Source: Bellilinea caldifistulae | GTDB taxonomy: Bacteria > Chloroflexota > Anaerolineae > Anaerolineales > Anaerolineaceae | NCBI RefSeq assembly: GCF_001306055.1 | Contig: NZ_LGHJ01000017.1 | Span: forward strand, 1 to 32,000 | Length of the DNA: 32,000 bases | Reading direction: 5' to 3' | In this document: positions 5,882 to 31,994 of the stretch, piece after piece | Layout of the letters: every line of letters begins with the position of its first letter | Position numbering within the stretch: the stretch's first letter is position 1 | Program-made: the position numbers and the translations under genes | The notes under the pieces: model-generated | Database searches by the model: none | What the model was told of the DNA's origin: nothing | The model's input: the letters and a program-made list of their open reading frames with translations, nothing else

Positions 5882-5910
5882 AATTGCCTCAACTTCGCCA
5901 ATGTCAATCG

Positions 5911-6034: not shown

Positions 6035-6077
6035 AAACAAAACAACCCGCAAGGTTTTTACACCTGCTGGACGGGTT
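6035..6077 (-). promoter_or_regulatory. Terminator-like leader hairpin plus U-run (possible attenuator)
   Basis: Minus-strand RNA: AACCCG...(22 nt)...CGGGUU followed by GUUUUGUUU. It lies between the predicted promoter (6142-6170) and the sORF/GNAT start. Confidence 0.25.
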
Positions 6078-6141
6078 TTACAACTACATTGTGTGGATAT
6101 TGATGGTATTGCCTTATGAAACTGTAGGGTGAAGTACTTTT

Positions 6142-6170
6142 ATTATAGCCAATCCAAAAACCTCAGTCAA
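6142..6170 (-). promoter_or_regulatory. Sigma70-like promoter (TTGACT-17-TATAAT)
   Basis: Minus strand reads TTGACT gaggtttttggattggc TATAAT, with an exact 17-nt spacer. It is about 255 nt upstream of the GNAT-like CDS. Confidence 0.45.
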
Positions 6171-6230
6171 TAACACTTGTAATTTTAGCGTCGGATAATT
6201 GTCATACAAATTATCGTCTATTGGCTGGGG

Positions 6231-6872: not shown

Positions 6873-6947
6873 GGTAATTTCTCCGTAAAATTACATCCTG
6901 TTTGTTTTTTAGATGCCAGAACGGCCGTTTTTCTTACCCAAAGACCA

Positions 6948-6975
6948 TTGACAATTCAATAAAGGTTCATAAAAT
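6948..6975 (+). promoter_or_regulatory. Sigma70-like promoter (TTGACA-16-TAAAAT) for the IclR-like gene
   Basis: ttgaca at 6948-6953, taaaat at 6970-6975. This would give a very short leader to ATG 6995. Confidence 0.35.
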
Positions 6976-7002
6976 TATACCTGAGTATAAATATATGAAC
7001 AA
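6974..7002 (-). promoter_or_regulatory. Possible divergent promoter (TTGTTC-17-TATAAT) for the DsbA-like gene
   Basis: Minus-strand TATAAT at 6974-6979 overlaps the plus-strand -10 element. The -35 is weak at 6997-7002. Confidence 0.25.
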
Positions 7003-13539: not shown

Positions 13540-15410
13540 CTGAATAACACATAATCCTGCAAAAAGCGCTCGGTTTGCTGGTAGAAGTCCTCAATCGTCT
13601 CCGGAGCGCGAAAGCCATGCCCTTCGCCGGGGTACAGGCGGAAGAGGTGCGGCACACCCAATCCGCGCAGACGTTCGACCAGCGCCTGATTTTGCGCGGG
13701 CGGTACAGCCTTATCTTCCTCACCTTGAAAGATCGCCAGCGCATCGCGAATTTGTGAAGCCTGAAAGAGCGGCGAGCGCTTGCGGTAGAGCGCGGCCGCC
13801 TGCGGAAATGGCGCAATCAGGCGATCGGTGTAGTAGCGCTCAAAGCGGTGCGTTTCACGCGCCAGCGCAATCAGGTCGGCTACCGGATAAAGCGCAATCC
13901 CGGCTTTGAACACGCCCGGGTAGCGTACCAGACAATTCAGCACGGTATAACCGCCGGCGCTGCCGCCCATCACCGCCATGCGCTGTTCATCCACCCGGCC
14001 CTGCTGAGCCAGAAAACGCGCCAGGCTGACCGTGTCCACTACGTCCGCCTCGCCCCAATGACCGTTCAAAGCCTGCTGGTACGTGCGCCCGTAACCGCTG
14101 CTGCCGCGGTGATTGACCTCCAGCCAGGCGTAGCCGCGGCTGGTGAAGTAAGCCGCTTCGCGTGGAAAATCCAGCACCACCGCCGAGGTCGGCCCGCCAT
14201 GGACGTGAACGATGAGCGGCGGCAGACCTTCGCCTTGCACCTGCGGATTCTGCGGCGGGTAAAACCAGCCGTAAACCCGACCCCCATCCGGGAGATTGCA
14301 TTCAATGGCTTGTGGCTCGGCAAACCACGTCTCCGGCAGCAGCCACGCATCCGTACAGGCAATCTCCTGCCAGCGGCTTCCATCCCAGCGCAAAACTCGC
14401 TCGGCCAGGCGCGGTGAGGATGCCAGCAAGGCAATTTCACCGCTGAGTGGGTGAACACTCAACTGGCGCAGCCATGTATAAGGTGCGGTGGGAATCACCC
14501 GCACCGCGCCGCTTTCGACTTCCACTTCACACAATTCTGCCAGCCCGGCGCGGTTGCGAATCACCAGCAACCGTCTACCGTCAGGCAGCCAGGCCAGCGT
14601 GCGCTGTCCCTGCACCCAGGCCGGCGTGCTGAGGTGAAAACCCTGCGCCGCGTAAACCAGCCGCTTTTCACCGCTACTCAGATCCAACACGATCAGATCA
14701 TCCCACTCCCCCTGCGCAGCAAGGTAGGCCAGCCGGCGGCCATCCGGCGAAAAGCACGGCTGGGCGAAGGCCGCCTCTTCGTGCCCGCCGGCAATCATCA
14801 CCTTTTCGGCAACTTGCGGCACTTCTCCTGCCAGCCGTGCCATTACCACCCTCGTGGCATCCCAGGGCATGTTCGGGTTCTCCCATTCCACCCACGCCAG
14901 CGCATTTCCATCCGGCGACCAGGCCGGCTGCATGTAAAAATCCGCCCGGCTGTCCAGGAGAATTGGCCAGCCGCCGTTGGACTCAACCAAACCTAATGCA
15001 GCCCGATCCCCATCCTCATGAACAAAAGCCAGCCAGCGGCCATCCGGTGAAGGCGCCGGTGCGCTGAACGCCCCCCAGGCTGGCGTCACAGCTCGAACGG
15101 CAGCCGTTTCGAAATCGTAACGCATGATCTGGCGGCCCTGCTGGACAAAATACAGGCTGTCCCCGCTGGCAGTAAATTCCCCGCCGCCGTAACCCACCCC
15201 ACCGCGCGCCGAATGCTCGAAGAGCAAATCGCGGCGGGCGCTACCTCCGGGTTGATAGACCAGCTGGCCCTGCTTTCCGCGGTTTTCCAGCCAGACCAAT
15301 CCATTGCCGCCAAACTGAACATCCTCCAGCCGGGCGCGCTGGGCCATGCGCCGCGCGCTGATGATGCTGGGCCAAAATCCGTAGGGCTGCCTGCGCTTTG
15401 CGTTACTCAT
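13536..15410 (-). CDS. S9 family serine peptidase (acylaminoacyl-peptidase / prolyl oligopeptidase-like) with N-terminal beta-propeller
   Basis: 624 aa. PD40-like repeats (WSPDG, FSPDGRRLAY), nucleophile elbow GGSAGGY, catalytic His context PGEGHGF. GGAGGAGGAAG RBS. Confidence 0.85.
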   Translation of the reverse strand: MSNAKRRQPYGFWPSIISARRMAQRARLEDVQFGGNGLVWLENRGKQGQLVYQPGGSARRDLLFEHSARGGVGYGGGEFTASGDSLYFVQQGRQIMRYDFETAAVRAVTPAWGAFSAPAPSPDGRWLAFVHEDGDRAALGLVESNGGWPILLDSRADFYMQPAWSPDGNALAWVEWENPNMPWDATRVVMARLAGEVPQVAEKVMIAGGHEEAAFAQPCFSPDGRRLAYLAAQGEWDDLIVLDLSSGEKRLVYAAQGFHLSTPAWVQGQRTLAWLPDGRRLLVIRNRAGLAELCEVEVESGAVRVIPTAPYTWLRQLSVHPLSGEIALLASSPRLAERVLRWDGSRWQEIACTDAWLLPETWFAEPQAIECNLPDGGRVYGWFYPPQNPQVQGEGLPPLIVHVHGGPTSAVVLDFPREAAYFTSRGYAWLEVNHRGSSGYGRTYQQALNGHWGEADVVDTVSLARFLAQQGRVDEQRMAVMGGSAGGYTVLNCLVRYPGVFKAGIALYPVADLIALARETHRFERYYTDRLIAPFPQAAALYRKRSPLFQASQIRDALAIFQGEEDKAVPPAQNQALVERLRGLGVPHLFRLYPGEGHGFRAPETIEDFYQQTERFLQDYVLFS

Positions 15411-15460
15411 CTGCTTCCTCCTCCTATTTGGTTAATTCTACCGGAAAAGCGCCATTGGAA

Positions 15461-15490
15461 TAAAAAAGACTGCCCGCTGAGGGGCAGTCT
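15461..15490 (-). terminator. Rho-independent terminator of trxA
   Basis: AGACTGCCC (15467-15475) pairs with GGGCAGTCT (15482-15490) around a 6-nt loop. On the minus strand it is followed by TTTTTTA. It sits 19 nt after the trxA stop. Confidence 0.6.
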
Positions 15491-15508
15491 TTTCGCATCC
15501 CAACCGCA

Positions 15509-15850
15509 TCAATCCTGCGGATGTACAACCAGATACGGCTCAAGGGTTTCTTTCAAGCGTTGCAAGGGCTGAAAACCGCTCATCCGCTTGACGGCCTCGC
15601 CGTTTTGGAACAGGATCAGGGTCGGCACACTCAGCACCATGAACTGCATGGCAAGGTCTGAAGCCTCATCCACATCCACCGATAAAATTTCCAGACGGTC
15701 ACCCCATTCCTGACTCAGGCGGGCAAGCTCGGGTTCCAGTCGCTTACAGGGACCGCACCAGACCGCCCCGAACTCAACCAGTACCGGTTTTTCCGTGCCA
15801 AGTACCCGTTGTTCAAACTCCTCTTCCGAAATGGTTTCGATTTCTTTCAT
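15509..15850 (-). CDS. trxA: Thioredoxin
   Basis: WCGPCK active site. Start placed at ATG 15850, 8 nt after GGAGG at 15859-15863. A minus-strand TATAAT at 15886-15891 makes the ORF-track start at 15883 unlikely. Confidence 0.85.
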   Translation of the reverse strand: MKEIETISEEEFEQRVLGTEKPVLVEFGAVWCGPCKRLEPELARLSQEWGDRLEILSVDVDEASDLAMQFMVLSVPTLILFQNGEAVKRMSGFQPLQRLKETLEPYLVVHPQD

Positions 15851-15943
15851 TCGCATTTCCTCCACTTCAACTAATGGTATCATTGATTATACTCCACGTG
15901 TCAAGACAACAATTCCATTTAGCAAAAAGATAACCAAACCTTA

Positions 15944-17035
15944 ATGAAACTTCAACTTCCCCATGGTCATCTTGACTTTCCCGCCTTTCTGCCGGACGCA
16001 ACTCTGGCGGTAGTGCGTACAGTCGATTCGCGTGACCTGCGCGCCTGCGGTATTCCGGCTCTGATGATGAACGCCTTTCACCTCATGCAAAAGCCGGGTT
16101 CCAGCGTGATTCAGGCTTTGGGCGGCCTGCACCGGATGAGCAACTGGGATCGCCCAATCTTTACCGATTCGGGTGGTTTTCAGGCTTATTCGCTCATCCG
16201 TCAAAATCCGCGCTTCGGCAAAATGGACGAACGCGGAATCACCTTTCAGCCGGAAGGCGGCCAGCGTAAATTCCTGCTCACACCGGAAAAGAGCGTTCAA
16301 CTGCAAATCGGCTATGACAGCGATGTGGTCATCTGTCTGGATGATTGCACCCATGTGGAAGCGCCCCGCAGCGAGCAGGAACTCTCTGTGCAGCGCACCA
16401 TTGCCTGGGCCAAGCGCGCCCGGCGCGAATATGATCGTTTGATGGAACAAAAGAAACTGACCGGAGGTCAGAGACCGCTCATTTTTGCGGTCATTCAGGG
16501 CGGAGGCGAACTTGACCTGCGCCGTCAATGCGCCGATGCCCTGTTAGAAATTGGTTTTGATGGCTACGGCTTCGGCGGTTGGCCGTTGGACTCTTCCGGA
16601 AGTCTACTGAGCGAGATTCTCGAATATACCCGCCAGTTAGTCCCAGCCCAGTATCCCCTCCACGCCCTGGGAATTGGGCATCCGCACAACGTGGTAACCG
16701 GCTGGCAGCTGGGTTACAGCATTTTCGACTGCGCCATGCCAACCCGTGATGCCCGTCATGGCCGTTTGTACACCTTCACCAATCCTCCCGGACAGGATGG
16801 CGGATTGAACGGCAACTGGCTGGAATACCTCTACATCAACGACGAACGCCACATGCGATCCAGCCGCCCCATCTCCGAGTGGTGCGACTGTCCGACCTGC
16901 CAGCAATATAGCCTCGGCTACTTACGCCACCTGTTCAAGATCAACGACAGCCTCTTTTTAAGGCTGGCAACCATCCATAATTTGCGCTTTATGACCCAGC
17001 TGACCGAGCGCATCCGCCTGAATTCCCATGCCTGA
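15944..17035 (+). CDS. tRNA-guanine transglycosylase (TGT) family protein, divergent
   Basis: 363 aa. TDSGGFQ, IFDCAMPTRDARHG, Zn motif CDCPTCQQYSLGYLRH, IHNLRF. Substrate-pocket segments differ from E. coli Tgt as I recall it (FLPDAT vs FMPVGT; GFGGWPLDSSG vs AVGGLAVGE; LHALGIGHP vs YLMGVGKP). Confidence 0.8.
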   Translation: MKLQLPHGHLDFPAFLPDATLAVVRTVDSRDLRACGIPALMMNAFHLMQKPGSSVIQALGGLHRMSNWDRPIFTDSGGFQAYSLIRQNPRFGKMDERGITFQPEGGQRKFLLTPEKSVQLQIGYDSDVVICLDDCTHVEAPRSEQELSVQRTIAWAKRARREYDRLMEQKKLTGGQRPLIFAVIQGGGELDLRRQCADALLEIGFDGYGFGGWPLDSSGSLLSEILEYTRQLVPAQYPLHALGIGHPHNVVTGWQLGYSIFDCAMPTRDARHGRLYTFTNPPGQDGGLNGNWLEYLYINDERHMRSSRPISEWCDCPTCQQYSLGYLRHLFKINDSLFLRLATIHNLRFMTQLTERIRLNSHA

Positions 17036-17840
17036 GCCGGTGGACATTGATGCCCTGATTCGCGCCGTACAGGCCAACCCGCGCTACGCCGCCATAGACC
17101 CCGGCTTGATTCGCGGGTTAATTGAACGCTATCAGAGCAGCATTCACCAGCCGCGTGAATTGATTAAGGCTGTGCGCAATAAACTTCATCAGGTTGGCGG
17201 GGCTTATCTGGAAAAGCCAATAGACTATGCGAATTGGGGCGAACGCCTTGCAATCCTGCCCCGTGACCTGCATCATCCCCAGGTCAAAGAATTTTGCCGA
17301 CAAATGATGGCGCTGCACGCCTCCACCCGCGAACGCCTTCCAATCCTCGACCGGTTTTATGCGGAAACCCTCACCAGTCTTCAGCCCATTCATTCCATCC
17401 TCGATCTGGCTTGTGGGCTCAACCCGCTGGCTCTACCGTGGATGCCGGTCAACCCCGCTACCCAAATTTACGTTTGCGACATTTACAGCGACCAGATTAA
17501 CTTTTTACAGCAATTTTTCAACCATTTTGGCATCCATGGGCAGGCAACCCTTTGCGACCTGACCCGCAGTCTGCCTCAACAGTCGGTTCAGGTGGCTTTC
17601 CTGCTCAAATCCATCCCCTGTCTGGAGCAATTGGATAAGACCATCGCCACACGTTTGCTGCACGGCATTCCCGCAAAATACTGGCTGATTTCGTTTCCGG
17701 CTCACAGTCTGGGAGGGCGCGGCAAAGGGATGCGCCAGCACTACCGCCAGCACTTTGAGGAACTGATTCGCGGTTGGGCGGTACAATTGCGGTCTTTTGA
17801 ATTCCCCGGTGAACTGGTTTTCCTGCTTTCCCCTGCCTGA
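17028..17840 (+). CDS. FmrO/Rmt-family 16S rRNA (guanine1405-N7)-methyltransferase-like protein, copy 1
   Basis: 270 aa. HASTRERL, DLACGLNPLALPW and SFPAHSLGGRGKGM closely match recalled RmtB motifs (HASTKERL, DIACGLNPLAL, SFPTRSLGGRGKGM). 8-nt overlap (ATGCCTGA) with the TGT gene. Confidence 0.8.
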   Translation: MPEPVDIDALIRAVQANPRYAAIDPGLIRGLIERYQSSIHQPRELIKAVRNKLHQVGGAYLEKPIDYANWGERLAILPRDLHHPQVKEFCRQMMALHASTRERLPILDRFYAETLTSLQPIHSILDLACGLNPLALPWMPVNPATQIYVCDIYSDQINFLQQFFNHFGIHGQATLCDLTRSLPQQSVQVAFLLKSIPCLEQLDKTIATRLLHGIPAKYWLISFPAHSLGGRGKGMRQHYRQHFEELIRGWAVQLRSFEFPGELVFLLSPA

Positions 17841-17938
17841 TTCATCCTGCAGACCTAGCCGCAATCCATTTCGGGACGGATGGCACACCGAAAGGACTCG
17901 GCTATGATAGGGTCATCAAACCACAAGGAGAAACAATC

Positions 17939-18229
17939 ATGGAAAACCAAGTCGAAATCAGAAATACACTCAAGACCAATCCACTGGCAATTGCCAGCCT
18001 GGTTCTATCCGCCGGCGGTTTCAGCTTCCTCCCTCTGATCGGAAGTATCGCCGGCATTGTGACCGGGTACATGGCACGTCGCGAGATACGCGAGAATTCC
18101 CACCTCTACAACGGCGAGAGCCTTGCCAAAACGGCGATCATCCTCGGATGGATTGGGATTGTGCTGCCAATCGTGATCCTCACCTTTGGCATACTCTTCA
18201 TGTTTCCTGCGACGACGATCTTCCGCTAA
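17939..18229 (+). CDS. DUF4190-like small membrane protein, paralog 1
   Basis: 96 aa, two TM segments flanking a charged loop (GSIAGIVTGYMARREI...GESLAKTAIILGWIG). AAGGAG RBS. Confidence 0.65.
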   Translation: MENQVEIRNTLKTNPLAIASLVLSAGGFSFLPLIGSIAGIVTGYMARREIRENSHLYNGESLAKTAIILGWIGIVLPIVILTFGILFMFPATTIFR

Positions 18230-18246
18230 TGACGGGCTGACCTATG

Positions 18247-18324
18247 AACGGGAATGGGTTGAGGAAATTTCCTGTGTTTATCCCTCGTTGGAGATGACCA
18301 AAACCCATTCCTGGATCCCGTTTT
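18247..18324 (+). other. Long interrupted hairpin with T-run between the DUF4190 paralogs
   Basis: GGAATGGGTT (18251-18260) pairs with AACCCATTCC (18302-18311). The stem is extended by AACG/CGTT across a 7-nt bulge. A GGAAATTTCC palindrome sits in the apical part at 18263-18272, and TTTT follows. Confidence 0.25.
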
Positions 18325-18391
18325 CCCAAAAAGATAAAAAAACAAGGTTAAAATAAACTTGTCTGCACACTCATACGAAAGAAAAAATCTC

Positions 18392-18697
18392 ATGGAAAGA
18401 ACCCCGCAAATTGAACATGTTTCCTCTCATCCTCTCGCCATTGTTGGCCTGGTGCTTGGTATTCTTGGGCTGATCGGCGTGTTACCGTTGGTCGGCTCAA
18501 TTGGGGCATTGATCGCCGGCAAAATGGCTCAAAAGGAAATTCTGGAAAAACCAGAACTTTACACAGGTGAGAATTTTGCCCGCGCCGGCATCATCATGGG
18601 ATGGATAGGACTCGCCATTGGGGTTGTCATTTGTGTGCTGGTAGCGGTTGCTTTTCTGTTCTTCATGCCGGTTGGCATACAAACCATGCCTCAATAA
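18392..18697 (+). CDS. DUF4190-like small membrane protein, paralog 2
   Basis: About 50% identical by eye to paralog 1 (GSIGALIAGKMAQKEI...GENFARAGIIMGWIG). Start is ATG 18392, with TTG 18359 as an alternative. Confidence 0.65.
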   Translation: MERTPQIEHVSSHPLAIVGLVLGILGLIGVLPLVGSIGALIAGKMAQKEILEKPELYTGENFARAGIIMGWIGLAIGVVICVLVAVAFLFFMPVGIQTMPQ

Positions 18698-18703
18698 CCC
18701 ACG

Positions 18704-19804
18704 ATGAACCTGCACAGCCGCTGGCAACAATTTACGAATCGTTTTCTGAACCGTCTGCGCTGGCGGCTGACCCTGAGTTTCACGCTGGTCACCCTGGCGG
18801 CAATCTTAATGGCAGCCTGGTGGAGCTTCCTGGCGCTGAATGTATATCTTTCTCGCACCATGCCGGATCTGTTTACCGGCTCATCAGCCAGCCAGATGCT
18901 TCCCGGTCTCCTTCAACTGGCAGGACAGGCTCTGCTGGTGCTGATCATTCCGGCTGTGCTGGTAGGAACGTTGTTCGGTTTTTTAACCGCACGCTGGCTG
19001 GAAAGCCGGCTTGACCATTTGCGAAACACCACCGAGGCATGGGCAAACGGCAACTTCAAGCCCCGCATCAACGACCTTGCTCAGGATGAAATTGCCCGCT
19101 TCGGCAGGCAATTGAATCAAATGGCTGCGGAACTGGAAACCCTGATGTCAACCCGTCAGCAGTTAGCTGCCATGGAAGAACGGAATCAGCTCGCCCGCGA
19201 CCTGCACGATTCGGTTAAGCAAAATCTGACTGCGGCCATCTTGCAGCTGAACACCGCTGCAGTGCTGATCGCAACCGAACCTCAGGCTGCCCAACAGACC
19301 CTTCAAAGAGCCGAGGATCTTGCAGTGCAGGCTCAGCAGGAACTCACCAATGTGATATTAGAACTTCGTCCGGCGATGCTGCACCAAAAGAACCTGCCCG
19401 GTGCATTGAAAGATTACCTGCAACGATGGCAACAGCAAAATCAAATTGTCGTGGACTTCACTCACACCGAAAACCTCCAGCTGACATTCAGTCAGGAATT
19501 AACCCTTTTCCGAATAGTGCAGGAAGCCCTTGCCAATGTCATCCGCCACAGCAGTGCAACCCATGTCAACGTTTCTCTTGATTGCGACTCGCACCAGATC
19601 ATGTTGAGAATTCAGGACAATGGCCGCGGCTTTGACCTCAGCCGGTCAGGTTCTTCCGGCTTTGGTTTGAAAAGCATGCGCGACCGGGTGGAAGAAATTG
19701 GCGGTCGGCTGGAGATTGAAAGCAGCATCGGACAGGGAACAACGGTCAGCGCCTCCGTTCCGATCAAACTTGAACCGCGAAATGAGGAAATCCTCAATGG
19801 ATAA
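18704..19804 (+). CDS. Sensor histidine kinase, HisKA_3 (LiaS/DesK/NarX-type), two TM segments with a short loop, HAMP domain
   Basis: H-box LARDLHDSVKQNL, N-box EALANVIRHS, G-boxes IQDNGRGF and GFGLKSM. The loop between the two N-terminal TM segments is only about 20 aa. Confidence 0.85.
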   Translation: MNLHSRWQQFTNRFLNRLRWRLTLSFTLVTLAAILMAAWWSFLALNVYLSRTMPDLFTGSSASQMLPGLLQLAGQALLVLIIPAVLVGTLFGFLTARWLESRLDHLRNTTEAWANGNFKPRINDLAQDEIARFGRQLNQMAAELETLMSTRQQLAAMEERNQLARDLHDSVKQNLTAAILQLNTAAVLIATEPQAAQQTLQRAEDLAVQAQQELTNVILELRPAMLHQKNLPGALKDYLQRWQQQNQIVVDFTHTENLQLTFSQELTLFRIVQEALANVIRHSSATHVNVSLDCDSHQIMLRIQDNGRGFDLSRSGSSGFGLKSMRDRVEEIGGRLEIESSIGQGTTVSASVPIKLEPRNEEILNG

Positions 19805-20462
19805 AACGCCCAACCCAATTACGGTAATTATTGTGGATGACCACGCCGTTGTTCGGCAGGGTTTGATCGCTTTTCTACAAACACAGGAAGACATCGAAAT
19901 CATCGGTGAGGCTGAAAATGGGGCGCAGTTGCTTAAGTTACTCCCCCATAGCGTGCCGGATGTCCTGCTGATGGATCTGATCATGCCGGATATGGACGGG
20001 GTTGAGGCGACCCGCCGGGTAAAAGCCATCAGCCCTCATACGCAGGTCATCATTTTCACCTCTTATTACAAGGATGAACATATTTTTCCGGCTGTTCGGG
20101 CCGGAGCGCTCTCGTATATTTTGAAAGACACCAAACCCGCCGAACTGGTTGATGCCATTCGAAAAGCTTCGCGGGGTGAAGCCGTTCTTCATCCGCGTGT
20201 TGCAGCCCGGCTTGTGCAGGAAGTACAGGGCATACGCAGCGAAACCATCAACCCGTTTTCAGAATTGAGTGACCGTGAGTTGGAAATTCTGCGCCTGATC
20301 GCCAGCGGCATTTCCAATCGCGAGATTGCCGAAGTTCTGTTCATCAGCGAAAAAACAGTCAAGAGCCATGTGAGCAACATTCTCTCCAAACTGCACCTGG
20401 CCGACCGCACCCAGGCTGCCGTTTACGCCTGGAATCAAGGAATTGTCAGACGGGATGAATAA
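19797..20462 (+). CDS. Response regulator, NarL/FixJ family (REC + LuxR-type HTH)
   Basis: VIIVDDHAVVRQGL, LMDLIMPDMDG, LSDRELEILRLIASGISNREIAEVLFISEKTVKSHVSNIL. 8-nt overlap (ATGGATAA) with the kinase gene. Confidence 0.9.
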   Translation: MDKTPNPITVIIVDDHAVVRQGLIAFLQTQEDIEIIGEAENGAQLLKLLPHSVPDVLLMDLIMPDMDGVEATRRVKAISPHTQVIIFTSYYKDEHIFPAVRAGALSYILKDTKPAELVDAIRKASRGEAVLHPRVAARLVQEVQGIRSETINPFSELSDRELEILRLIASGISNREIAEVLFISEKTVKSHVSNILSKLHLADRTQAAVYAWNQGIVRRDE

Positions 20463-21282
20463 AACTGCTTCTGTTTCTGAAGATGAAATTCGCAAATGGA
20501 TTGGAATGCTGCGCGCCATTCGAAAGTATCGCTCGCTGGATTTACCCGATGCCCTCCTGCGCGATTTGATTGTGGAGGAGCTGTCCCGTCATTCCTCTTC
20601 CAGTGAGGCGTTGAAAGCCGTTCGCCGTAAACTCCACAACATCGTTGCCCCTTACCTTGGCGATCCAGACTACACCACCGCCCAAAAAGCCCTGGAGGCT
20701 GCTTTTACCGACGGAAGCCCACAATCTGTCCGAGAATTCTGCCTGTCCATGCTGGCCAGTCACGCCTCCACCCGTGAGCGGATTCCGCTCCTCGATGAGT
20801 TTTACTCCCGTTTGTGGAAAATCACCGGACTACCCCAGACACTCCTTGACCTGGCTTGTGGAATGCAACCGTTTGCCCTGCCGTGGATGGGCTTGCCCAC
20901 CTTGACCCGCTATTTCGCCTATGATCTGCACCGGCCGCGCGTTGATTTGATCAACCAGTTTTTTCAACGGAGCGGCTGCCGCGGTTCTGCCATTCACGAG
21001 GATATTTTGGTCAATCCTCCGCAGATAGAAGCCGAAGTTGCCCTGTTTTTCAAAGAAGCCCACCGTTTTGAACAACGCCGCCGCGGGGCCTGTTTGCCTT
21101 TCTTTCAAGCCCTGCGCGTTCGCTGGCTGCTGGTATCACTGCCAATCAGCAGCCTGAAAGGCACCCGTGATTTAGAAGATCGTCAACGCAGGTTGATGCA
21201 GTCCATCCTTGGCGGTCAAACCTGGGAGGTCACAGAAATCCGTTTTGAGAACGAGTTGGTGTTCTGTATTCAAAAAACATGA
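20455..21282 (+). CDS. FmrO/Rmt-family 16S rRNA methyltransferase-like protein, copy 2 (divergent)
   Basis: HASTRERIP and DLACGMQPFALPW are conserved, but the SLxGxxKGM segment is replaced by SLKGTRDLE. ATG 20455 overlaps the RR stop by 8 nt (ATGAATAA), with TTG 20443 as an alternative start. ATGA overlap with the next gene. Confidence 0.7.
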   Translation: MNKTASVSEDEIRKWIGMLRAIRKYRSLDLPDALLRDLIVEELSRHSSSSEALKAVRRKLHNIVAPYLGDPDYTTAQKALEAAFTDGSPQSVREFCLSMLASHASTRERIPLLDEFYSRLWKITGLPQTLLDLACGMQPFALPWMGLPTLTRYFAYDLHRPRVDLINQFFQRSGCRGSAIHEDILVNPPQIEAEVALFFKEAHRFEQRRRGACLPFFQALRVRWLLVSLPISSLKGTRDLEDRQRRLMQSILGGQTWEVTEIRFENELVFCIQKT

Positions 21283-22772
21283 GCCGTCGTAAAAAAACTT
21301 CCTCAACCGCTCCCTACCCTGCCATTTCAGCACGAGAGACGGCGCTGGAACAATTCCGCGCCTTGCTTGCGCCGGAGGATTTTCAAGCCCTGCTCGAAGA
21401 GCTGGAGCGCCCGCTGTTGCCCGCCTTTCGGATCAACCCACTCAAAACTTCGCCGCAAGCCGTTGCAGACTGGTGCAACTGGTACGGTTGGGAGGTCCAG
21501 CCGGTAGTGTTTTGCCCAACCGGCTGGCAGGTTCGCCAGGCGCGTACACCGCTCAGCCAGACCCTGGAACACCGGTTGGGGCACTACTACATTCAGGATG
21601 CGGCTTCGATGCTTCCGGCAGAATTATTCGACCTGCCAGCGTCTCCCTACCCGCTGATTCTTGACCTGGCCGCTTCGCCCGGGGGAAAGACCACCCACCT
21701 GATCAGCCGCACCCTTGACCGCGGGTTGGTACTGGCCAACGATGCCGGACTCGAACGGATCACCCCACTGCGTTTGGTGCTGCAAAATTGGGGGACGGTC
21801 AATACCGCTGTCACCCGCTTTCCAGCCGAAAAGTTTGGGCGCTGGTTTCCGGCCACCTTCGATTGGGTGTTGCTGGATGCACCGTGCAGCATGCAATCCC
21901 TCCGACCGACCGAATCGCATCCGATGCGGAGCATCTCTCAGCGCGAGCAATCCCATCTGGCACGCCGCCAAACGGCAATGCTCCTCTCCGCCCTGGCAGC
22001 GGTCAAACCCGGCGGTCAGGTGGTCTACTCGACCTGTACCCTCGCTCCGCAAGAAGACGAAGCCGTTCTGGATGAGATTATCCGCCGCCTGCCGTTCAGT
22101 GTTCAAATCAACCCGGTCACCGACCGGCTCCCCGCCCCTGCCCCAGCACTCGCCAATGCGTTTGGTCAAGTCTTCCATCCGCAGGTACAAAACGCCCTGC
22201 GCCTCTGGCCACATCGCTTTTCGACATCCGGTTTTTTTGCGGCCCGCTTAACCCGCACTGGTGAAGTTGAATTACCCATCGAACCGCCACCTGCCCGCCC
22301 CCTGCGCGAAACCGGTCAGGAGCCGCTCAACCGCTCAAACCTGCAAGAGATCACCCACTGGCTACAAAATACCTACGCTTTTGACCTGCTCAGCGTACTG
22401 GAAACCTATCGCTTAGAACTGTGGCACAGCCAGACCTCCGTTTTTGCCGTTCCCATTGCTTTTCTGGAAAGATTCAACGAACTGCCGTGTCAAATGCTGG
22501 GTCTCAAGGTATTGGAAGAAACCCCCGATGGCTGGCAGCCCGCCCATGAATGGGTCAATCGTTTTTTCAATCTCTTTCACGCCGGACGATTAGTCCTACC
22601 GAATGAAATGATGGACGAATGGCTGAAAGGCAAGGATGTTCCCCTGCCGGTTTCCGCCGCTAATCCTCCCGCCGTCTGGTTGGTGTTTGATGAACGCAAC
22701 CGCTTTGTGGGGAGGGGACGCTCCAGTGGTCCCTGGTTGAAAAACCTGCTGCCGCGTCGCCTGATTGGGTAA
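21279..22772 (+). CDS. rsmF: 16S rRNA (cytosine1407-C5)-methyltransferase RsmF-like (NOL1/NOP2/Sun family with C-terminal extension)
   Basis: 497 aa. The architecture is collinear with E. coli RsmF as recalled (EDFQALLEELERPLLPAFRINPLK; YYIQDAASMLP; DLAASPGGKTTH; LLDAPCS; VYSTCTLAPQEDE; C-terminal LKNLLPRRLIG vs LKNSYPRELV). No NusB-like N-domain, so not RsmB-type. Confidence 0.75.
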   Translation: MSRRKKTSSTAPYPAISARETALEQFRALLAPEDFQALLEELERPLLPAFRINPLKTSPQAVADWCNWYGWEVQPVVFCPTGWQVRQARTPLSQTLEHRLGHYYIQDAASMLPAELFDLPASPYPLILDLAASPGGKTTHLISRTLDRGLVLANDAGLERITPLRLVLQNWGTVNTAVTRFPAEKFGRWFPATFDWVLLDAPCSMQSLRPTESHPMRSISQREQSHLARRQTAMLLSALAAVKPGGQVVYSTCTLAPQEDEAVLDEIIRRLPFSVQINPVTDRLPAPAPALANAFGQVFHPQVQNALRLWPHRFSTSGFFAARLTRTGEVELPIEPPPARPLRETGQEPLNRSNLQEITHWLQNTYAFDLLSVLETYRLELWHSQTSVFAVPIAFLERFNELPCQMLGLKVLEETPDGWQPAHEWVNRFFNLFHAGRLVLPNEMMDEWLKGKDVPLPVSAANPPAVWLVFDERNRFVGRGRSSGPWLKNLLPRRLIG

Positions 22773-22780
22773 GAGACGCT

Positions 22781-23755
22781 TCAATCAGAAAGGCTAATTT
22801 CAGCGGTGCGAATGTTCAGCCGGTAGCGCAAACCGAATTGATCCTGAATCAACAGGGTTTCGCCCTCATCCCAGGAAACTGGCAGGTATTGACCCTGCCG
22901 ATTTTCGACAATATAACGCACCACACCGCTGATCAGGTCAACCAGCACAAATGAGGTTTGCATCTCCGCTGGTTGTTGAATATTGCCCAAAATGCCAAAA
23001 GCCAGCCGGCTGTTATCGGGCGCCCAGACCAACCCGCCGGCCTGCCAGTTATCTCCTTGATCCAGCTGCAGTAAGTTTGTGAAGGCAATTTCGCGGAGAA
23101 CCTCCCCCGACAAACTGTGAATGACCAGACGGCCACCCTGCAAAACAGCAAAGGTTTCAACGTCCCCCGCCGCCCGCAACAAACCGCATTCACCGGTTAG
23201 TTGGGTTCTTTCACCGTTTTGCAAATTGACGCGATAAAGACCGCAATCAAATCCGACGATGGTCGGGCTACCATCCGGTATACCATGCTCGGTGTAAAAA
23301 AATTGACTTCCATCTTGGCTCCAGTGGAATTGAGCCGGTAAGGTATAACCCAGCCCAAAGGGGCGTTCTTCATCGAGGATCGGCCAGCGCAACCCGCCAT
23401 CCTTGCGGAACACCGACAGCGAAAGCCGGTAAGTTTCGCCGCTTACCCTGCCATCGGCTGCAACTGGAAAGATGGTGCTGACCTGTACCGTCCATTGACC
23501 ATCCGGCGAGGGGTAAAACCAGTCCTCATGGGTTGTTTTTGGCGGGGCAGGAGACGAAGTCGGGGTTGACCGAATAGCTTCGGTGGATGGGGGCGCCAAA
23601 GTTTCTACCTGGCGAAGTTCAACCGCCGGCGTCGGCGATACCAGTGGAGGTTGAATGACCGCAGTTGGTAGAGACGGCGCAGCCGTTGAACAGGCTGCTA
23701 TTCCGATGCACGCCCCTATCCAGACCAGATTACGCAGCCATTTGGTCATCATCAT
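22781..23755 (-). CDS. Lipoprotein of unknown function, PD40/beta-propeller-like repeats
   Basis: Signal peptide plus lipobox (GIAAC). WSQDGSQFFY and WAPDNSRLAF are repeat-like strings. The start overlaps the rsmE stop (ATGATGATGA). Confidence 0.6.
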   Translation of the reverse strand: MMMTKWLRNLVWIGACIGIAACSTAAPSLPTAVIQPPLVSPTPAVELRQVETLAPPSTEAIRSTPTSSPAPPKTTHEDWFYPSPDGQWTVQVSTIFPVAADGRVSGETYRLSLSVFRKDGGLRWPILDEERPFGLGYTLPAQFHWSQDGSQFFYTEHGIPDGSPTIVGFDCGLYRVNLQNGERTQLTGECGLLRAAGDVETFAVLQGGRLVIHSLSGEVLREIAFTNLLQLDQGDNWQAGGLVWAPDNSRLAFGILGNIQQPAEMQTSFVLVDLISGVVRYIVENRQGQYLPVSWDEGETLLIQDQFGLRYRLNIRTAEISLSD

Positions 23756-24507
23756 CTCCTTTTCGCATAATCCTGTTCTTCAAAAAGGGCCAGCAGTAAA
23801 GCAGCCCCGACAATCGCAGCCGTTTCGGTGCGCAAGATGCGTTTCCCTAAACTCACCGGCAGCCAGCCGGCCTGTTCGGCTGCTTGAACTTCCTCGGCTT
23901 CCCAGCCGCCTTCAGGCCCGATCAGCAAGCCGGCGTGGGCAGCGCTATCCGCTGGTAAAACAGCCGCCGCGCCGATCATCCGTTGGGTTTCACCCTCCCA
24001 CGCCATCAATCCAATCTCAAAGTTTTGCCTGAACGGAAGAAAATCCGGCAGCCATCGCGGTTCATCCAGGCGCGGGATCATTCCCCGTCCGGCTTGTTCG
24101 GCCGCCTCCTGCAAAATTCGTTGCCAGCGGGGATACTTTTCCAGGGCCAATGCAGGATGCTGCACCAGACTGCGCCGGGTGATCAGCGGCACAATCCTGC
24201 TCACCCCCACTTCGGTCACTTTTTGGAGCGTCCACTCAAATTTTTCCCGCTGGGTCAAAGCCAAACCGAGCGTCAGGTGTAAAGCAGGTTCTCGTTCGTT
24301 TTTCTGCCAGCCCAACAAAACCCCGCTTGCTTCTCGTACCGAGAGAGCGGTTAATTCGACTACCGCTTCGTTACCCGAACCATCCAGTGCCATCACCCTG
24401 CAGCCGGGGGTAAGTCGCAAGACTTGCGCCATCTGACGGGCGCACTCCGGTGGAAATTGAACCCGATTCCCCTCAAATGCTGTCGGCGGGATAAAGAAAC
24501 GGTGCAT
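23752..24507 (-). CDS. rsmE: 16S rRNA (uracil1498-N3)-methyltransferase
   Basis: MHRFFIP start typical of RsmE, about 250 aa, C-terminal LLIGPEGGW...E...LG.RILRTETA SPOUT motif. The TTG start at 24549 directly abuts GGAGG and was rejected. Confidence 0.85.
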   Translation of the reverse strand: MHRFFIPPTAFEGNRVQFPPECARQMAQVLRLTPGCRVMALDGSGNEAVVELTALSVREASGVLLGWQKNEREPALHLTLGLALTQREKFEWTLQKVTEVGVSRIVPLITRRSLVQHPALALEKYPRWQRILQEAAEQAGRGMIPRLDEPRWLPDFLPFRQNFEIGLMAWEGETQRMIGAAAVLPADSAAHAGLLIGPEGGWEAEEVQAAEQAGWLPVSLGKRILRTETAAIVGAALLLALFEEQDYAKRR

Positions 24508-24661
24508 ACCCCAATTGTACCTGATGGAATTCGATTTTTCAGGTTTCAACCTCCTGAATTAATTTGAATGAAATTTGTAATCCGTGGGGTGTGTCATTTG
24601 TCGGTACAGATTCGACCCCACATTTCTTAAAATTGAAACATCCCTTCTGGAGATTGTTTGT

Positions 24662-25465
24662 ATGAAAACGGCCAAACTTCGCCCCACAAACCGCATGGAA
24701 GCAGTGACCAGCCGTTGGTGGTTCCTGCTGATTGTCATTTTGATCAGTTTTTTTCCTCTTTATTCCCAACAGCCCTACGACCCGCGCCAAACCTCCGAAG
24801 TCATCAGCGCGGTACTGGCTTCACCGCTGATTTACTCGTTGCCAGCACTCTTTCCTCTGTTCAAAATCATCCCGCTGGCTTTGACCGTCTGGCTATTGTT
24901 TGAGCCGATTAAGGCGCTGCGCTGGTTTGCCCTCTATGCTGCGCTCAATCTGTTCGGAATTGCCTTCTTTCAGAACAGCGCCCTCACCTCCCAGTATGGA
25001 CTGGTGATTATCACCGGAAATGTAATTCTCTTCGGCGCAATCGGCGCAGCATGGCTTGCGGAGGCAATGAATCCCCGCTTAATTTTTTCAACCCGTCCTT
25101 TGACGACCCGGGCTTTGATCCTTGTGCCGTTGATGTTGCTTGCCTTCTGGATGCCGATTCAAACCGAAACTATGCGCCTGAATCTCGATCCAGCATTGCT
25201 TTTTACCAATGAAGCGGGATTGACCGGCTGCATGATGCTACCCCTTTATACCGGCATGCTGGTGATTGCTTACCCTCAGGTTAACCGGGTTTTGCTGCGC
25301 CTGAGCGGCTTCATCGGTCTGCTAATCGCCTTTTTTAATTTACTGACCCATTTTGTTTTTGTGCCTGCCAATTTCTGGATGGGCGTGCTGCATCTGCCGT
25401 TGTTCTTCATCTCCCTGACGGCATTTGTCTTATCGCTGCGGAAACCAACCTCTCAACCGGCCTGA
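24662..25465 (+). CDS. Polytopic membrane protein, unknown function
   Basis: 267 aa with at least 6 hydrophobic segments. GGAG lies 10 nt before ATG 24662. No recognisable motif. Confidence 0.55.
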   Translation: MKTAKLRPTNRMEAVTSRWWFLLIVILISFFPLYSQQPYDPRQTSEVISAVLASPLIYSLPALFPLFKIIPLALTVWLLFEPIKALRWFALYAALNLFGIAFFQNSALTSQYGLVIITGNVILFGAIGAAWLAEAMNPRLIFSTRPLTTRALILVPLMLLAFWMPIQTETMRLNLDPALLFTNEAGLTGCMMLPLYTGMLVIAYPQVNRVLLRLSGFIGLLIAFFNLLTHFVFVPANFWMGVLHLPLFFISLTAFVLSLRKPTSQPA

Positions 25466-25521: not shown

Positions 25522-26235
25522 ATGGAAAAATGGGTCAAAGACCTGAAAACACTGGTGGGGATCCAACTGACCGCCCGGCAAATTGCCGCCTTTCAGCGTT
25601 ATGAGGATGAACTGCTGGAATGGAACAGCCGCATGAATCTGACCGCCATCCGCGATCGCGAGGGGATACGCACCAAACATTTCCTTGACTCGCTCAGTTG
25701 TATTCTTGCTTTTCGCGAACGCCCCCCCGAACGTCTGATTGACATCGGCACCGGAGCCGGATTTCCGGGTATTCCCCTCAAAATCATTTACCCGCGCATG
25801 AAACTTACGCTGGTTGAATCGGTTGGCAAGAAGCTGGAATTTTGCCGTCATATCGTTCAAACGCTCAAGCTGGAGGATGTAACCCTGCTCCAGGCCCGTG
25901 CTGAAGCGCTCGGCCAGGATCGCGCCTACCGCGAGCAGTATGACTGGGCAGTTGCCCGGGCGGTTGCCACCCTGCCCGTTTTAGCCGAATATCTACTACC
26001 GCTGGTTGCGCTGGGCGGAAAAATGCTGGCACAAAAAGGAGAAAGTGCCCATACCGAAGCGGTTGCCGCGGAAAAAGCCATCCGCGTACTGGGAGGTGAG
26101 CTCCAGCAAATCATTCCCGTTCTGGTACCGGGCATTGCCGAAGAACGTTATTTGGTCGTGGTGGATAAAGTCGCTATTACTCCGCCCGGTTATCCAAGGC
26201 GGGTTGGCTTACCTGCTCGCCGTCCAATTCAGTAA
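25522..26235 (+). CDS. rsmG: 16S rRNA (guanine527-N7)-methyltransferase
   Basis: NSRMNLTAIRD, KHFLDSL, DIGTGAGFPGIPLKI, 237 aa. Confidence 0.9.
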   Translation: MEKWVKDLKTLVGIQLTARQIAAFQRYEDELLEWNSRMNLTAIRDREGIRTKHFLDSLSCILAFRERPPERLIDIGTGAGFPGIPLKIIYPRMKLTLVESVGKKLEFCRHIVQTLKLEDVTLLQARAEALGQDRAYREQYDWAVARAVATLPVLAEYLLPLVALGGKMLAQKGESAHTEAVAAEKAIRVLGGELQQIIPVLVPGIAEERYLVVVDKVAITPPGYPRRVGLPARRPIQ

Positions 26236-28042: not shown

Positions 28043-29710
28043 CTACGAATTTTCGCCCAATCGTGTCGGATTTTTACCGTTGCTCTTCCCCTGCACCATG
28101 CGGTGATACTCTTCGATCCAATCCGCCAGTTGTTCGTTGATCGAGGCTTCTGCCCGTTCTTCTTCACGCTGTTTGAATTCCATGAAACGTTGGAACAATT
28201 CGCGTTGCACCTCGGACGGCGCCATCACATTGTTGAAAGTCAGGGTCGAGTCGCCCACCCGAATGTAGACCGTGCCAAAGTTTAAGATCAAACCGATCAA
28301 CCCCAGCCGTTCAAAATCAATACTCAAAATATTTTTCAGGGGAGCTGAACGTTTTTGTTCGGTGCCGAGCGGCTTTTTATACACATCAATGATCGTATCG
28401 CGGGTGATGATATAACGGTCGTTCCGCCAATCGAAGTAGTTATATACCAACCAACCCGCTGTAATTGGCAGGAACAAAACCCCAATTACCAGCGCCAAAA
28501 CCGGCGGTAGTGGGAGAATACCAGCGAAAATGGAAATCATGGCCGCTACAACCACAAGTGACAAAAGGAATGGAAGCATCGTTTTCTTAAACAAGATAAA
28601 CCAGTGGGTGCGGTAAATGATGGTACCGTCCTGCTCAACCCGCAGCATGAACAAATCGGATAGGAACTGGGTCAACTTACCGCTCTTGACCACCGGTTTG
28701 ACTTCCTGCGAGGATGGCTGCGGGAGTGGTTCGTCAGCGCCGAGGTTCAAACGCCGCCGGATAATCTGGTCAATCGATTCTAGCCGGGCGCGTTTGCGGC
28801 TGGCTTTGGCCCTCTCGCGCATTTCATTAATCAGATTGACAATCAGGTAGGGCTGAGCCAGCCGCGAAAGGATCAACTCGCCGGTATATGTTCGGACGAT
28901 AATATCCCCATAGCCAATAATTCGTCCCAGTTGGGTGGTTCGCACATCATCAGCCAGCACGGCATCAAGCGGCACTTCCTGCCGGCTGTCGTAGATTAAT
29001 AAAATTTTTCGCAAATAAGCCACCCGACGGTTGGTGACGATCGAATAATCATTGTAAAAATCAACCACCACCCACACCAACCAGCCAAGATTGATCAGCA
29101 CTACCAGCAATAGTAACCCCATCCCCAACGCCGAGCCGCGAAACAGCACCACATCCAGATAAGAAGTAACAATCGTGGTCAACAAGGCCAAGAAAACCGG
29201 CAAAATCAGGCGCAGCACCAGAAAAATGGGATGATGCCTGCCGATGTAGTGAACCACCTCGCGCGGGCCCCGCCAGGGCATACGCGTCCGCATGGCGAGA
29301 TGATAACTGGCAGCCACCAGCCGAAAGGCAGCCTCCACTTTGGGGTATTCTTTTTTCAATTCATCAATCAGTTCGCCGTTGAAGCGCAGCACAATCACAT
29401 TCGTCAGCGCAGTGGCTGTAGCAAGGCGCGGCGGCGGGGTATCCGCCAGAGCCTCTTCTCCAAAATAATCCGGCTCGCTGAGAATGACTTTAATTTCCTC
29501 ATCTTTATAATGGCGCACCAGTTCAACCCGACCGCTGAACAGGAAATAAAAACTTTCCACGGGGGCATCCTGTTCAAAAATTACCTGCTTTTCCTGATAC
29601 AAAAAAGCCTCAACCCTGTTGGCGATCTCCTCAATTTGGGCCGGACTCAGGCTGATGAACAGATGCGACCCGCGCAACAGATCAATCACATCGCTGCGGT
29701 TGACTTCCAT
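28043..29710 (-). CDS. Membrane protein: N-terminal cyclic-nucleotide-binding domain fused to two TM/bacterial-PH (bPH_2, YdbT-like) modules
   Basis: The N-terminus has a cNMP-binding-domain-like pattern (LFISLSPAQIEEIANRV...IFEQDAPVESFYFLFSGRVEL). Two TM hairpins are each followed by YSIVTNRRVAYLRK / RYIITRDTIIDVYK type bPH strings. Confidence 0.65.
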   Translation of the reverse strand: MEVNRSDVIDLLRGSHLFISLSPAQIEEIANRVEAFLYQEKQVIFEQDAPVESFYFLFSGRVELVRHYKDEEIKVILSEPDYFGEEALADTPPPRLATATALTNVIVLRFNGELIDELKKEYPKVEAAFRLVAASYHLAMRTRMPWRGPREVVHYIGRHHPIFLVLRLILPVFLALLTTIVTSYLDVVLFRGSALGMGLLLLVVLINLGWLVWVVVDFYNDYSIVTNRRVAYLRKILLIYDSRQEVPLDAVLADDVRTTQLGRIIGYGDIIVRTYTGELILSRLAQPYLIVNLINEMRERAKASRKRARLESIDQIIRRRLNLGADEPLPQPSSQEVKPVVKSGKLTQFLSDLFMLRVEQDGTIIYRTHWFILFKKTMLPFLLSLVVVAAMISIFAGILPLPPVLALVIGVLFLPITAGWLVYNYFDWRNDRYIITRDTIIDVYKKPLGTEQKRSAPLKNILSIDFERLGLIGLILNFGTVYIRVGDSTLTFNNVMAPSEVQRELFQRFMEFKQREEERAEASINEQLADWIEEYHRMVQGKSNGKNPTRLGENS

Positions 29711-29734
29711 GAGTTAAAGTATATACGAAAATGA

Positions 29735-31444: not shown

Positions 31445-31457
31445 GTCCCAAATTGTA

Positions 31458-31994
31458 TCACGAGGGCTCCCCAAACATACGGCTTAACGCCCGGCTTATG
31501 TGAATGACAGCCTTTTTGACCGGCACGCTGAGGGGCGCGTCAAACTCCAGGGTTTCAGGTTGAATGCCCAACAACACCACCCGGCAGCCCAGTTCTCTTT
31601 GTAAAAATTCTGCCAGCACCGAAGGTGGCAGGGTATGCGTCGAAGCACTTAAACCGTCCAGGGCTTCAACCTCAACCAGCATAACGCTGCCGGCTGACCG
31701 GCCCATCTCGGCGCTATCCACCATCACCACCACCTGTGGACGAAAGCGGCGCAGCCTTCCGGTCACATTCTCCGGGGCTGTGCCGCCTTCAATCAGCAGG
31801 AGATGATCCGATTGGTTTAATTTTTTCTGGAGGGTGCGCACGACCAGCACCCCAGCGGCATCATCTCCGTTGAACTGGTTACCAATACCGATAACTGCAA
31901 TCCGCAGCGGATGACCAACCTCACTCGCAAGGCGATTCAACAGGCTGCGCAGCTGCGCGCTCCATGAGGAAGCGGATGTCCTCGTCTTTTCCAT
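31458..31994 (-). CDS. Hydrogenase maturation endopeptidase (HycI/HoxW/HybD family)
   Basis: IAVIGIGNQFNGDDAAG, VVMVDSAEMG, SASTHTLPPS. 178 aa. Confidence 0.8.
   Translation of the reverse strand: MEKTRTSASSWSAQLRSLLNRLASEVGHPLRIAVIGIGNQFNGDDAAGVLVVRTLQKKLNQSDHLLLIEGGTAPENVTGRLRRFRPQVVVMVDSAEMGRSAGSVMLVEVEALDGLSASTHTLPPSVLAEFLQRELGCRVVLLGIQPETLEFDAPLSVPVKKAVIHISRALSRMFGEPS

Follow-up and report, generated by a model that had tools for sequence, protein, structure and literature searches.

The first 32,000 nucleotides (nt) of contig NZ_LGHJ01000017.1 of Bellilinea caldifistulae (assembly GCF_001306055.1), a stretch referred to here in its entirety as the window, carry a gene for a diverged methyltransferase of the FmrO (Arm/Rmt) family, Rmt2, directly joined to one for an RsmF-type 16S rRNA methyltransferase. 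The two form the terminal pair of a four-gene module, tgt2-rmt1-rmt2-rsmF, which is probably a vertically inherited housekeeping operon of the Anaerolineaceae for the decoding site in helix 44 (h44) rather than an acquired resistance cassette. The first-pass annotation had treated Rmt2-RsmF as a pair standing by itself, and this now has to be enlarged, the pair being the tail of the longer module. Our own reading is that Rmt2, whose conserved residues and modelled fold suggest an active enzyme, is a paralogue that would have been neofunctionalised and would work together with RsmF on late 30S subunits.

The junction of the two genes reads AAAAACATGAGCC. The ATGA overlap by which the first-pass annotation had joined Rmt2 to RsmF is real, as the ATG at 21279-21281 and the TGA at 21280-21282 share letters, and its coordinates were exact. 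The label ‘copy 2’ was also well chosen: the source genome (3.66 Mb, 99.7% complete) contains exactly two FmrO genes, the first being rmt1 (see the table). The ATG at 20455 is favoured over a TTG at 20443 as the start of Rmt2, orthologues of 275 amino acids (aa) spanning 100% of the query. A scan of 15300-24700 for promoters and terminators gave counts equal to those of shuffled controls and was uninformative on operon boundaries.

Conservation of this arrangement was followed by tblastn of the window proteins on 20 regions from relatives and on 80 of the 348 loci of Rmt2 type identified among GTDB species. Essentially all sampled Anaerolineaceae genera have the order tgt2-rmt1-rmt2-rsmF, usually with a convergent rsmE behind it. 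Of the 76 GTDB species loci whose downstream sequence is long enough, 74 have RsmF directly after Rmt2, a count that rules out chance adjacency; the worry of the first-pass annotation that the adjacency might be unique to this genome falls away with it. The two genes overlap in 60 of these 74 loci (by 4 nt in 32) and are no more than 20 nt apart in 71. Tgt2 and Rmt1 overlap in 51/62 loci, and Rmt1 and Rmt2 overlap or lie within 20 nt of each other in 48/66. Cultured carriers of the operon are Ornatilinea apprima P3M-1, Thermanaerothrix daxensis GNS-1, Longilinea arvoryzae KOME-1, Leptolinea tardivitalis YMTK-2 and Leptolinea sp. HRD-7.

The distribution of the genes also follows the family. 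FmrO genes, nearly always two, are present in 33 of 36 Anaerolineaceae genomes, and the same 33 have a full-length RsmF. The other three have neither; two of them are only 56-59% complete, and the third, G028, has 100% completeness and retains the canonical Tgt without Tgt2, RsmF or either FmrO copy. As this genome is complete and has only the canonical Tgt, the four genes were lost together, and the whole module is, judging from gene content, dispensable and was lost there as a unit. In a sample of 401 genomes from the phylum, all 10 Anaerolineaceae have FmrO and RsmF, and an FmrO gene is found in 76 genomes altogether, a single FmrO being paired with Tgt2 in many Chloroflexota families. Beyond the Anaerolineaceae, Rmt2-type genes occur in just two families (f13 and f23), with rsmE following directly on the same strand. 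One single-contig genome (G020) has a frameshift in Rmt2 (L041, G020:C1, 5829-6664, minus strand), near motif IV and with the remainder intact in another frame, and about 7 kb inserted between Rmt1 and Rmt2. Decay of Rmt2 in this genome was considered and rejected, since the single frameshift probably arose in assembly, as an indel, or by mutation very recently.

Rmt2 matches the FmrO family profile PF07091 with 138.6 bits (cut-off 27) over profile positions 3-253 of 255. National Center for Biotechnology Information (NCBI) records name proteins of this type ‘hypothetical’ or ‘class I SAM-dependent methyltransferase’ (SAM, S-adenosylmethionine). In a maximum-likelihood tree of 65 FmrO proteins, the Rmt2-type sequences form one monophyletic clade (support 100 in the Shimodaira-Hasegawa-like approximate likelihood ratio test, SH-aLRT), and Rmt1 falls with other Tgt-linked Chloroflexota FmrO enzymes in a separate clade (SH-aLRT 99). 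Within the genus the Rmt1 and Rmt2 subtrees mirror each other, as expected under vertical co-inheritance. On the evidence of the tree and alignments Rmt2 is an undescribed FmrO subfamily, separate from the canonical enzymes. Chloroflexi homologues are labelled ‘uncharacterized’ in one published Rmt tree (2019), and no paper was found on FmrO in Chloroflexi, on the paralogue pair or on a linkage to RsmF.

The residues defined by cryo-electron microscopy and mutagenesis of RmtC on the 30S subunit (PMC10288597) were mapped onto both clades, with 22 members for Rmt2 and in RmtC numbering. In RmtC, R50 and H54 serve 30S docking and the displacement of helix 45 (h45), Y60 stacks between SAM and G1405, S107 and D160 bind SAM, and K204 contacts N7 (PMC10288597). 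The equivalents of S107, D160, Y60 and K204 are each present in 22/22 Rmt2 sequences, S105, D157, Y67 and K200 being invariant in an alignment of 47 sequences too, and the D134 equivalent is invariant or nearly so. The docking residues are similarly retained: H54 in 22/22, R50 as arginine in 20 and lysine in 2, and K24 and Y25 (RmtC K20 and Y21) nearly without exception.

RmtC pries h44 open with the loop at 237-246 and the linker at 207-214; R241 binds the phosphate of U1495, T207, R211 and N248 hold A1408, and M245 inserts in a pocket of C1407, A1408, C1409, A1492 and A1493 (PMC10288597). R241 and M245 are near-universal in Arm/Rmt enzymes (G-R-x-x-G-M), which also have a basic residue at 236. 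Rmt1 keeps all the residues that are essential in RmtC, among them R50, H54, Y60, S107, D160 and K204 and the loop G240-R241-x-K-G244-M245, and Rmt1 is the probable 7-methylguanosine 1405 (m7G1405) enzyme. In the loop of Rmt2, G244 is deleted in 22/22 sequences, the R241 position is arginine in only 7/22, M245 has become leucine in 18/22 and N248 arginine, an arginine or histidine stands one position past 241 in 20/22, and position 236 is serine, threonine or alanine in place of a basic residue. The linker after K204 reads E-A-H-R-F-E-Q-R instead of x-x-P-x-L-E, giving the motif KEAHRFEQR, and its proline-to-histidine change (P207-to-H) occurs only in the RsmF-coupled family. Y60 is followed by a new motif, APYLGDPDY, which is invariant. 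It appears therefore that Rmt2 kept the catalytic engine and the docking surface and rebuilt the surface that touches the RsmF target and its neighbours. Naming the pair the ‘enzymes for positions 1405 and 1407’, as the first-pass annotation did, is consequently an assumption, because Rmt2 has the one-residue loop deletion and the remodelled K204-E-A-H-R-F-E linker; the G1405-type loop, G-R241-x-K-G-M245, sits in Rmt1.

An AlphaFold2 model of Rmt2 from 47 sequences has a mean predicted local distance difference test score (pLDDT) of 93.5 and a predicted template modelling (TM) score of 0.89, and shows helical N1 and N2 subdomains and a C-terminal domain of the class I Rossmann type. A Foldseek search with this model finds Sgm first (TM 0.84-0.89), then RmtC, RmtB, RmtF and ArmA, with proteins outside the family at 0.46 or less; superposition on Sgm, RmtC and RmtB gives TM 0.76-0.89. 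The possibility that Rmt2 is a dead pseudoenzyme was rejected as unlikely because every SAM-binding and catalytic residue is invariant and the modelled fold is sound. Rmt2 thus shares with the Arm/Rmt/Kgm enzymes (Sgm, RmtB, RmtC, RmtF, ArmA) the Pfam family, the two-domain fold and the SAM, base and docking residues, but it differs from them in being chromosomal, vertically inherited, set among housekeeping genes and in a clade of its own.

These residues bear also on whether Rmt1 and Rmt2 are isozymes that both make m7G1405, Rmt2 being adapted to h44 already bearing 5-methylcytidine (m5C) at 1407 or to an assembly intermediate and forming an ordered pathway with RsmF, which is the strict form of the first-pass proposal. 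In favour of this, Rmt2 retains every catalytic and 30S-docking residue; the hydrophobic wedge survives in 18/22 as leucine, which is accepted in nature in place of M245 (PMC10288597); a basic residue (R or H) is adjacent in 20/22; the remodelled positions are those that contact C1407 and A1408 in RmtC; and the coupling of the gene to RsmF is tight. Yet the register of the loop is altered, the hydrophobic residue standing at i+2 from the basic one instead of i+4, S, T or A replaces the K236 equivalent, Rmt2-clade genes exist in lineages without this RsmF, and retention of two enzymes for one nucleotide across a bacterial class is in itself unlikely. In this strict form the proposal seems to us improbable.

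The 497-aa partner of Rmt2 has the architecture of RsmF. PF01189 (113.1 bits) and PF17125 (48.7 bits) both exceed their cut-offs and are found in 13/13 orthologues. The best match among solved structures is E. coli YebU/RsmF (2FRX), with an E-value of 1.4e-54 for the single sequence and 1.2e-90 for a profile of the 13 orthologues, which aligns 20-496 to 11-469 (of 479); the next profile match, Nop2, is 85 bits lower and covers the catalytic part only. The PUA-like domain PF13636 scores 19-21.5 bits in the window protein against a cut-off of 27.6 (PF21150, E-value 0.18) and is detected in 10/13 orthologues, with a best E-value of 2.9e-7. The cysteines of motif IV (DAPCS, C203) and motif VI (STCT, C253) and the SAM motif AASPGGKT are invariant. 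With E. coli RsmF the protein shares the motif IV and VI cysteines and the order of RsmF_N and catalytic domain, which putative pre-PUA and PUA-like domains would follow; it differs in its approximately 30% identity, in the sub-threshold PUA-like domain and in the coupling of its gene to an FmrO paralogue, which is not found in E. coli. The N-terminal and catalytic domains align with those of Thermus thermophilus RsmF (3M6U; 196.5 bits by profile), but the C-terminal domains do not.

The rsmF gene is the only NOL1/NOP2/Sun-family (PF01189) gene of the source genome, which therefore has no homologue of RsmB, the enzyme of m5C967. Sister families of the order carry RsmB-like genes instead. The 16S rRNA of the source genome is standard, over 1492-1505 too, with GCCCGUCAC and AAGUCGUAACAAGG, so that G1405, C1407, A1408, G1494 and U1498 are all present. 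E. coli RsmF is said to act on 30S subunits, as reportedly found by Andersen and Douthwaite in 2006. The T. thermophilus enzyme is reportedly multi-site, forming m5C at 1400, 1404 and 1407 (Demirci and colleagues, 2010), from which it would follow that RsmF-type enzymes can modify cytosines on either side of G1405.

Several observations weigh against a dedicated decoding-site pair. Neither enzyme reaches the cut-off of its NCBIfam equivalog model: Rmt2 scores 157.7 bits on Rmt_gen (NF000466, cut-off 250), where Rmt1 also falls short with 205, and the RsmF-type protein scores 246.7 bits on PRK11933 (NF008898, cut-off 588), although it aligns over its full length (29-496 to 20-470 of 480). The correlation of P207-to-H and Y249-to-Q with the presence of RsmF amounts to a single evolutionary event, and the remodelling of Rmt2 could reflect loss of h44 distortion with no new specificity. 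Of the 76 loci with about 6 kb downstream of Rmt2, two (L088 and L121) have no RsmF after it there, at least one genome of the family (G027) has RsmF on another contig, and Rmt2-clade genes occur without this RsmF in G047, G292 and G364. An RsmF of 43% identity is found in f52, an unrelated Chloroflexota family that has no FmrO gene; it stands alone (L154, G273:C1, 5956-7401, minus strand), flanked by genes for DDE transposases and for a Type ISP restriction-modification enzyme. Finally, given its coupling to a Tgt paralogue, the module may act on another RNA. In favour of the decoding-site reading, the partner of Rmt2 in f13 and f23 is rsmE, another h44 modifier. As Rmt2 without RsmF (f13, f23) and RsmF without FmrO (f52) both exist, neither partner is obligate; from synteny and distribution the Rmt2-RsmF association is strong and ancient within the Anaerolineaceae, with neither gene strictly dependent on the other.

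How the housekeeping operon might work can be outlined as follows. Rmt1 would act as the canonical m7G1405-type enzyme. Rmt2 would dock on the surface made by helices 24, 27, 44 and 45 and present its lysine to the N7 of a purine, using h44-prying elements that appear rebuilt where RmtC contacts C1407, A1408 and U1495. The RsmF-type protein would act at C1407 and possibly, as in Thermus, at C1404 or C1400. Stop-start coupling would give simultaneous synthesis of Rmt2 and RsmF in a fixed ratio for a late 30S assembly substrate, and adjacent nucleotides would be modified compatibly instead of one enzyme blocking the other. Arm/Rmt enzymes require the mature 30S subunit (PMC10288597). With both enzyme types using assembled 30S, coupling would therefore permit compatible modification of adjacent nucleotides.

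The target of Rmt2 may be a guanine other than G1405, an expectation that we place somewhat short of even. It may also be G1405 itself on a different substrate state, for instance h44 with m5C1407, which we consider a tenable but tentative option; whatever expectation is left goes to some other activity. A fuller version of the first option would make Rmt2 an N7 methyltransferase for G1494 or G1497, reached through base flipping by RsmF or RsmE, and part of a helix-44 hypermodification pathway together with Tgt2 and Rmt1. G1494 pairs with the RsmF target C1407 and G1497 adjoins the RsmE target U1498. With rsmE as an alternative partner and with its U1495 and A1408 contacts remodelled, Rmt2 has an attractive candidate target in the 3' strand of h44, though the complete scheme is speculative and, taken as a whole, doubtful.

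The literature on interference between these enzyme classes needs more care than the first-pass annotation gave it, as the inhibition of RsmF that it attributed to ArmA and RmtB is reported for Sgm and RmtC. Sgm (Cubrilo 2009) and RmtC (Gutierrez 2012) impede RsmF in E. coli (PMC3923132, PMC12406665), whereas ArmA blocks RsmI at C1402 and leaves RsmF unaffected (Lioy et al. 2014; PMC3923132). The antagonism is therefore enzyme-specific. In E. coli the same enzyme classes meet two nt apart on the 30S subunit (PMC3923132, PMC12406665), but there the combination is recent, heterologous and antagonistic, while the pairing in the Anaerolineaceae is ancient, is encoded in an operon and is evidently either tolerated or of benefit. 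Long co-residence and a rebuilt contact surface make it plausible that this is a case of evolved compatibility between Rmt and RsmF. The suggestion in the first-pass annotation that the two modifications are compatible rather than in conflict is partly supported: the pairing is conserved, translationally coupled and co-lost, which argues for coordinated action on a single substrate.

Tgt2, at the head of the module, is a second and divergent tRNA-guanine transglycosylase (TGT) paralogue; the canonical Tgt is encoded elsewhere in the source genome (C4:58405-59460) and scores 527.5 bits on PF01702 against 314.5 for Tgt2. The base-pocket motif is GGWPLDS in Tgt2 and GGLAVGE in the Zymomonas mobilis TGT, with the catalytic aspartates and the zinc site intact. 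In the window the end of tgt2 overlaps the start of rmt1 by 8 nt, and a Tgt2-type gene adjoins FmrO in 14 of 20 regions fetched from other families. At one locus (L153, G096:C218, 2710-5019, minus strand) Tgt2 and FmrO are fused in frame over about 770 open codons with a low-complexity linker; this gene structure ties the transglycosylase paralogue to the rRNA methyltransferase family in the Rosetta-stone manner. A second candidate, a 936-aa FmrO fusion in G195, proved to be only an open high-GC frame and no fusion. Nothing relevant was found in the literature on Tgt paralogues linked to methyltransferases.

This ancient pairing, fusion included, and the intact catalytic aspartates and zinc site of a TGT fold whose known relatives act only on tRNA or DNA, would fit a module that acts on tRNA or some other RNA and not on 16S h44, with Tgt2 exchanging a guanine near bases that the FmrO-like and RsmF-like enzymes would methylate; the NOL1/NOP2/Sun enzymes do include tRNA m5C methyltransferases. 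We judge such a target very unlikely, given that both FmrO copies retain the 30S-docking residues of the N1 domain, that the 497-aa protein, putative PUA-like domain included, is matched best over its full length by the 16S enzyme YebU, and that the neighbours and alternative partners (rsmE, rsmG and, on a plasmid, rsmH) all encode 16S enzymes.

The plasmid in question is a Klebsiella IncC plasmid (L157, NZ_CP021956.1), which carries at 4054-7120 the array rsmH-tgt-rmtG followed by a 98-aa SAM-methyltransferase fragment, with IS91 and IS26 adjoining. Its tgt product is 46% identical to Tgt2 of the window, the tgt gene likewise overlaps the Rmt gene by 8 nt, and rsmH precedes. The array differs from the window in having been mobilised by IS91/IS26, in containing one Rmt of the canonical resistance type and in lacking both an Rmt2-clade gene and RsmF. 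A Providencia plasmid (L158) has tgt-metallophosphoesterase-rmtB2. The upstream ‘tRNA ribosyltransferase’ of the plasmid array has been mentioned only in passing (PMC3904158). As a gene arrangement the IncC array is a precedent for an Rmt gene among decoding-site methyltransferase genes.

Table. Features of the tgt2-rmt1-rmt2-rsmF region in the window (predicted functions; coordinates are those of the window)
Feature	Position	Strand	Evidence or size
Tgt2, second divergent tRNA-guanine-transglycosylase paralogue	15944-17035	+	PF01702 314.5 bits
Rmt1, canonical-looking FmrO-family methyltransferase	17028-17840	+	PF07091 142.7 bits; NCBIfam Rmt_gen 205 bits
Two small DUF4190 membrane proteins	17939-18229 and about 18392-18697	+	PF13828, 68 and 53 bits
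Histidine kinase (HAMP, HisKA_3, HATPase_c)	18704-19804	+	Pfam
NarL/LuxR-type response regulator	19797-20462	+	Pfam Response_reg and GerE
Rmt2, diverged FmrO/Arm-Rmt-family SAM methyltransferase paralogue	20455-21282	+	275 aa; PF07091
ATGA stop/start overlap, Rmt2/RsmF	21279-21282	+	read from sequence
RsmF-architecture 16S rRNA m5C methyltransferase	21279-22772	+	497 aa; PF01189 and PF17125
RsmE, 16S 3-methyluridine 1498 (m3U1498) methyltransferase family, convergent neighbour	23752-24549	-	PF04452 155 bits
RsmG/GidB, 16S m7G527 methyltransferase family	25522-26235	+	PF02527 166.7 bits

The genes around the module have housekeeping functions: prolyl-tRNA synthetase (ProRS), Def, RecF, RsmE and RsmG. 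No mobile element and no biosynthetic cluster, for aminoglycosides or otherwise, was found near the Rmt2-RsmF locus in the window. In Bellilinea caldifistulae Rmt1 and Rmt2 are separated by a block comprising the two DUF4190 proteins, the kinase and the response regulator, which co-occur in the same loci as one genus-level insertion; the Rmt2-RsmF junction is left undisturbed. The stop of the response regulator overlaps the start of Rmt2 by 8 nt, ATGAATAA. The block is confined to the Bellilinea subclade (11/81 loci), and the 8-nt overlaps between kinase and regulator and between regulator and Rmt2 are kept in 10/10 loci with the insertion. This arrangement suggests that in the Bellilinea subclade the pair has come under signal-dependent expression through the upstream two-component system.

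Such control might be taken as a sign of inducible resistance of the aminoglycoside type, the two-component system sensing envelope or antibiotic stress and turning on Rmt2 and RsmF. The FmrO family is best known for resistance, and a kinase, a NarL-type regulator and DUF4190 proteins do stand upstream, coupled to Rmt2 wherever they are carried. Nevertheless the kinase-regulator insertion is present in only about 11 of 81 loci, the module is inherited vertically across the whole family and was lost whole in G028, Rmt1, the canonical copy of the resistance type, is not within the regulated part, and the context is one of housekeeping genes with neither mobile elements nor aminoglycoside biosynthesis genes nearby. 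The Anaerolineaceae are, moreover, strict anaerobes. Inducible resistance is for these reasons a most improbable function, and we retain the housekeeping operon as the preferred reading.

Two proteins of the window without a Pfam match are conserved beside rsmF and rsmE in the genus only: a 324-aa predicted lipoprotein-like protein (22781-23755, minus strand) and a 293-aa multi-pass membrane protein (24584-25465, plus strand). Further downstream, 28043-31474 on the minus strand encodes a 555-aa protein with a cyclic nucleotide monophosphate (cNMP)-binding domain and then a 579-aa DUF6909 protein (804 bits).

To our knowledge, m7G1405 methyltransferases are familiar almost only as resistance genes, either for self-protection of producers or as the plasmid-borne Rmt and ArmA enzymes of pathogens, and in such hosts they can perturb the native methylation of the decoding site. 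Here the FmrO family appears as an ancient housekeeping component in a lineage of non-producers, duplicated into two conserved subfamilies, and one of these, undescribed until now and with a target that may be new, is coupled to RsmF, the very enzyme reported to be blocked by acquired Rmt enzymes. The Anaerolineaceae may thus offer a natural system for learning how modifications of the m7G and m5C types on adjacent nucleotides are made compatible. The module would also provide context for the origin of rmt genes on clinical plasmids, where rsmH and the same Tgt paralogue accompany them. If Rmt2 does methylate a guanine other than G1405, the family would possess at least one rRNA modification never described and a helix-44 hypermodification pathway previously unknown.

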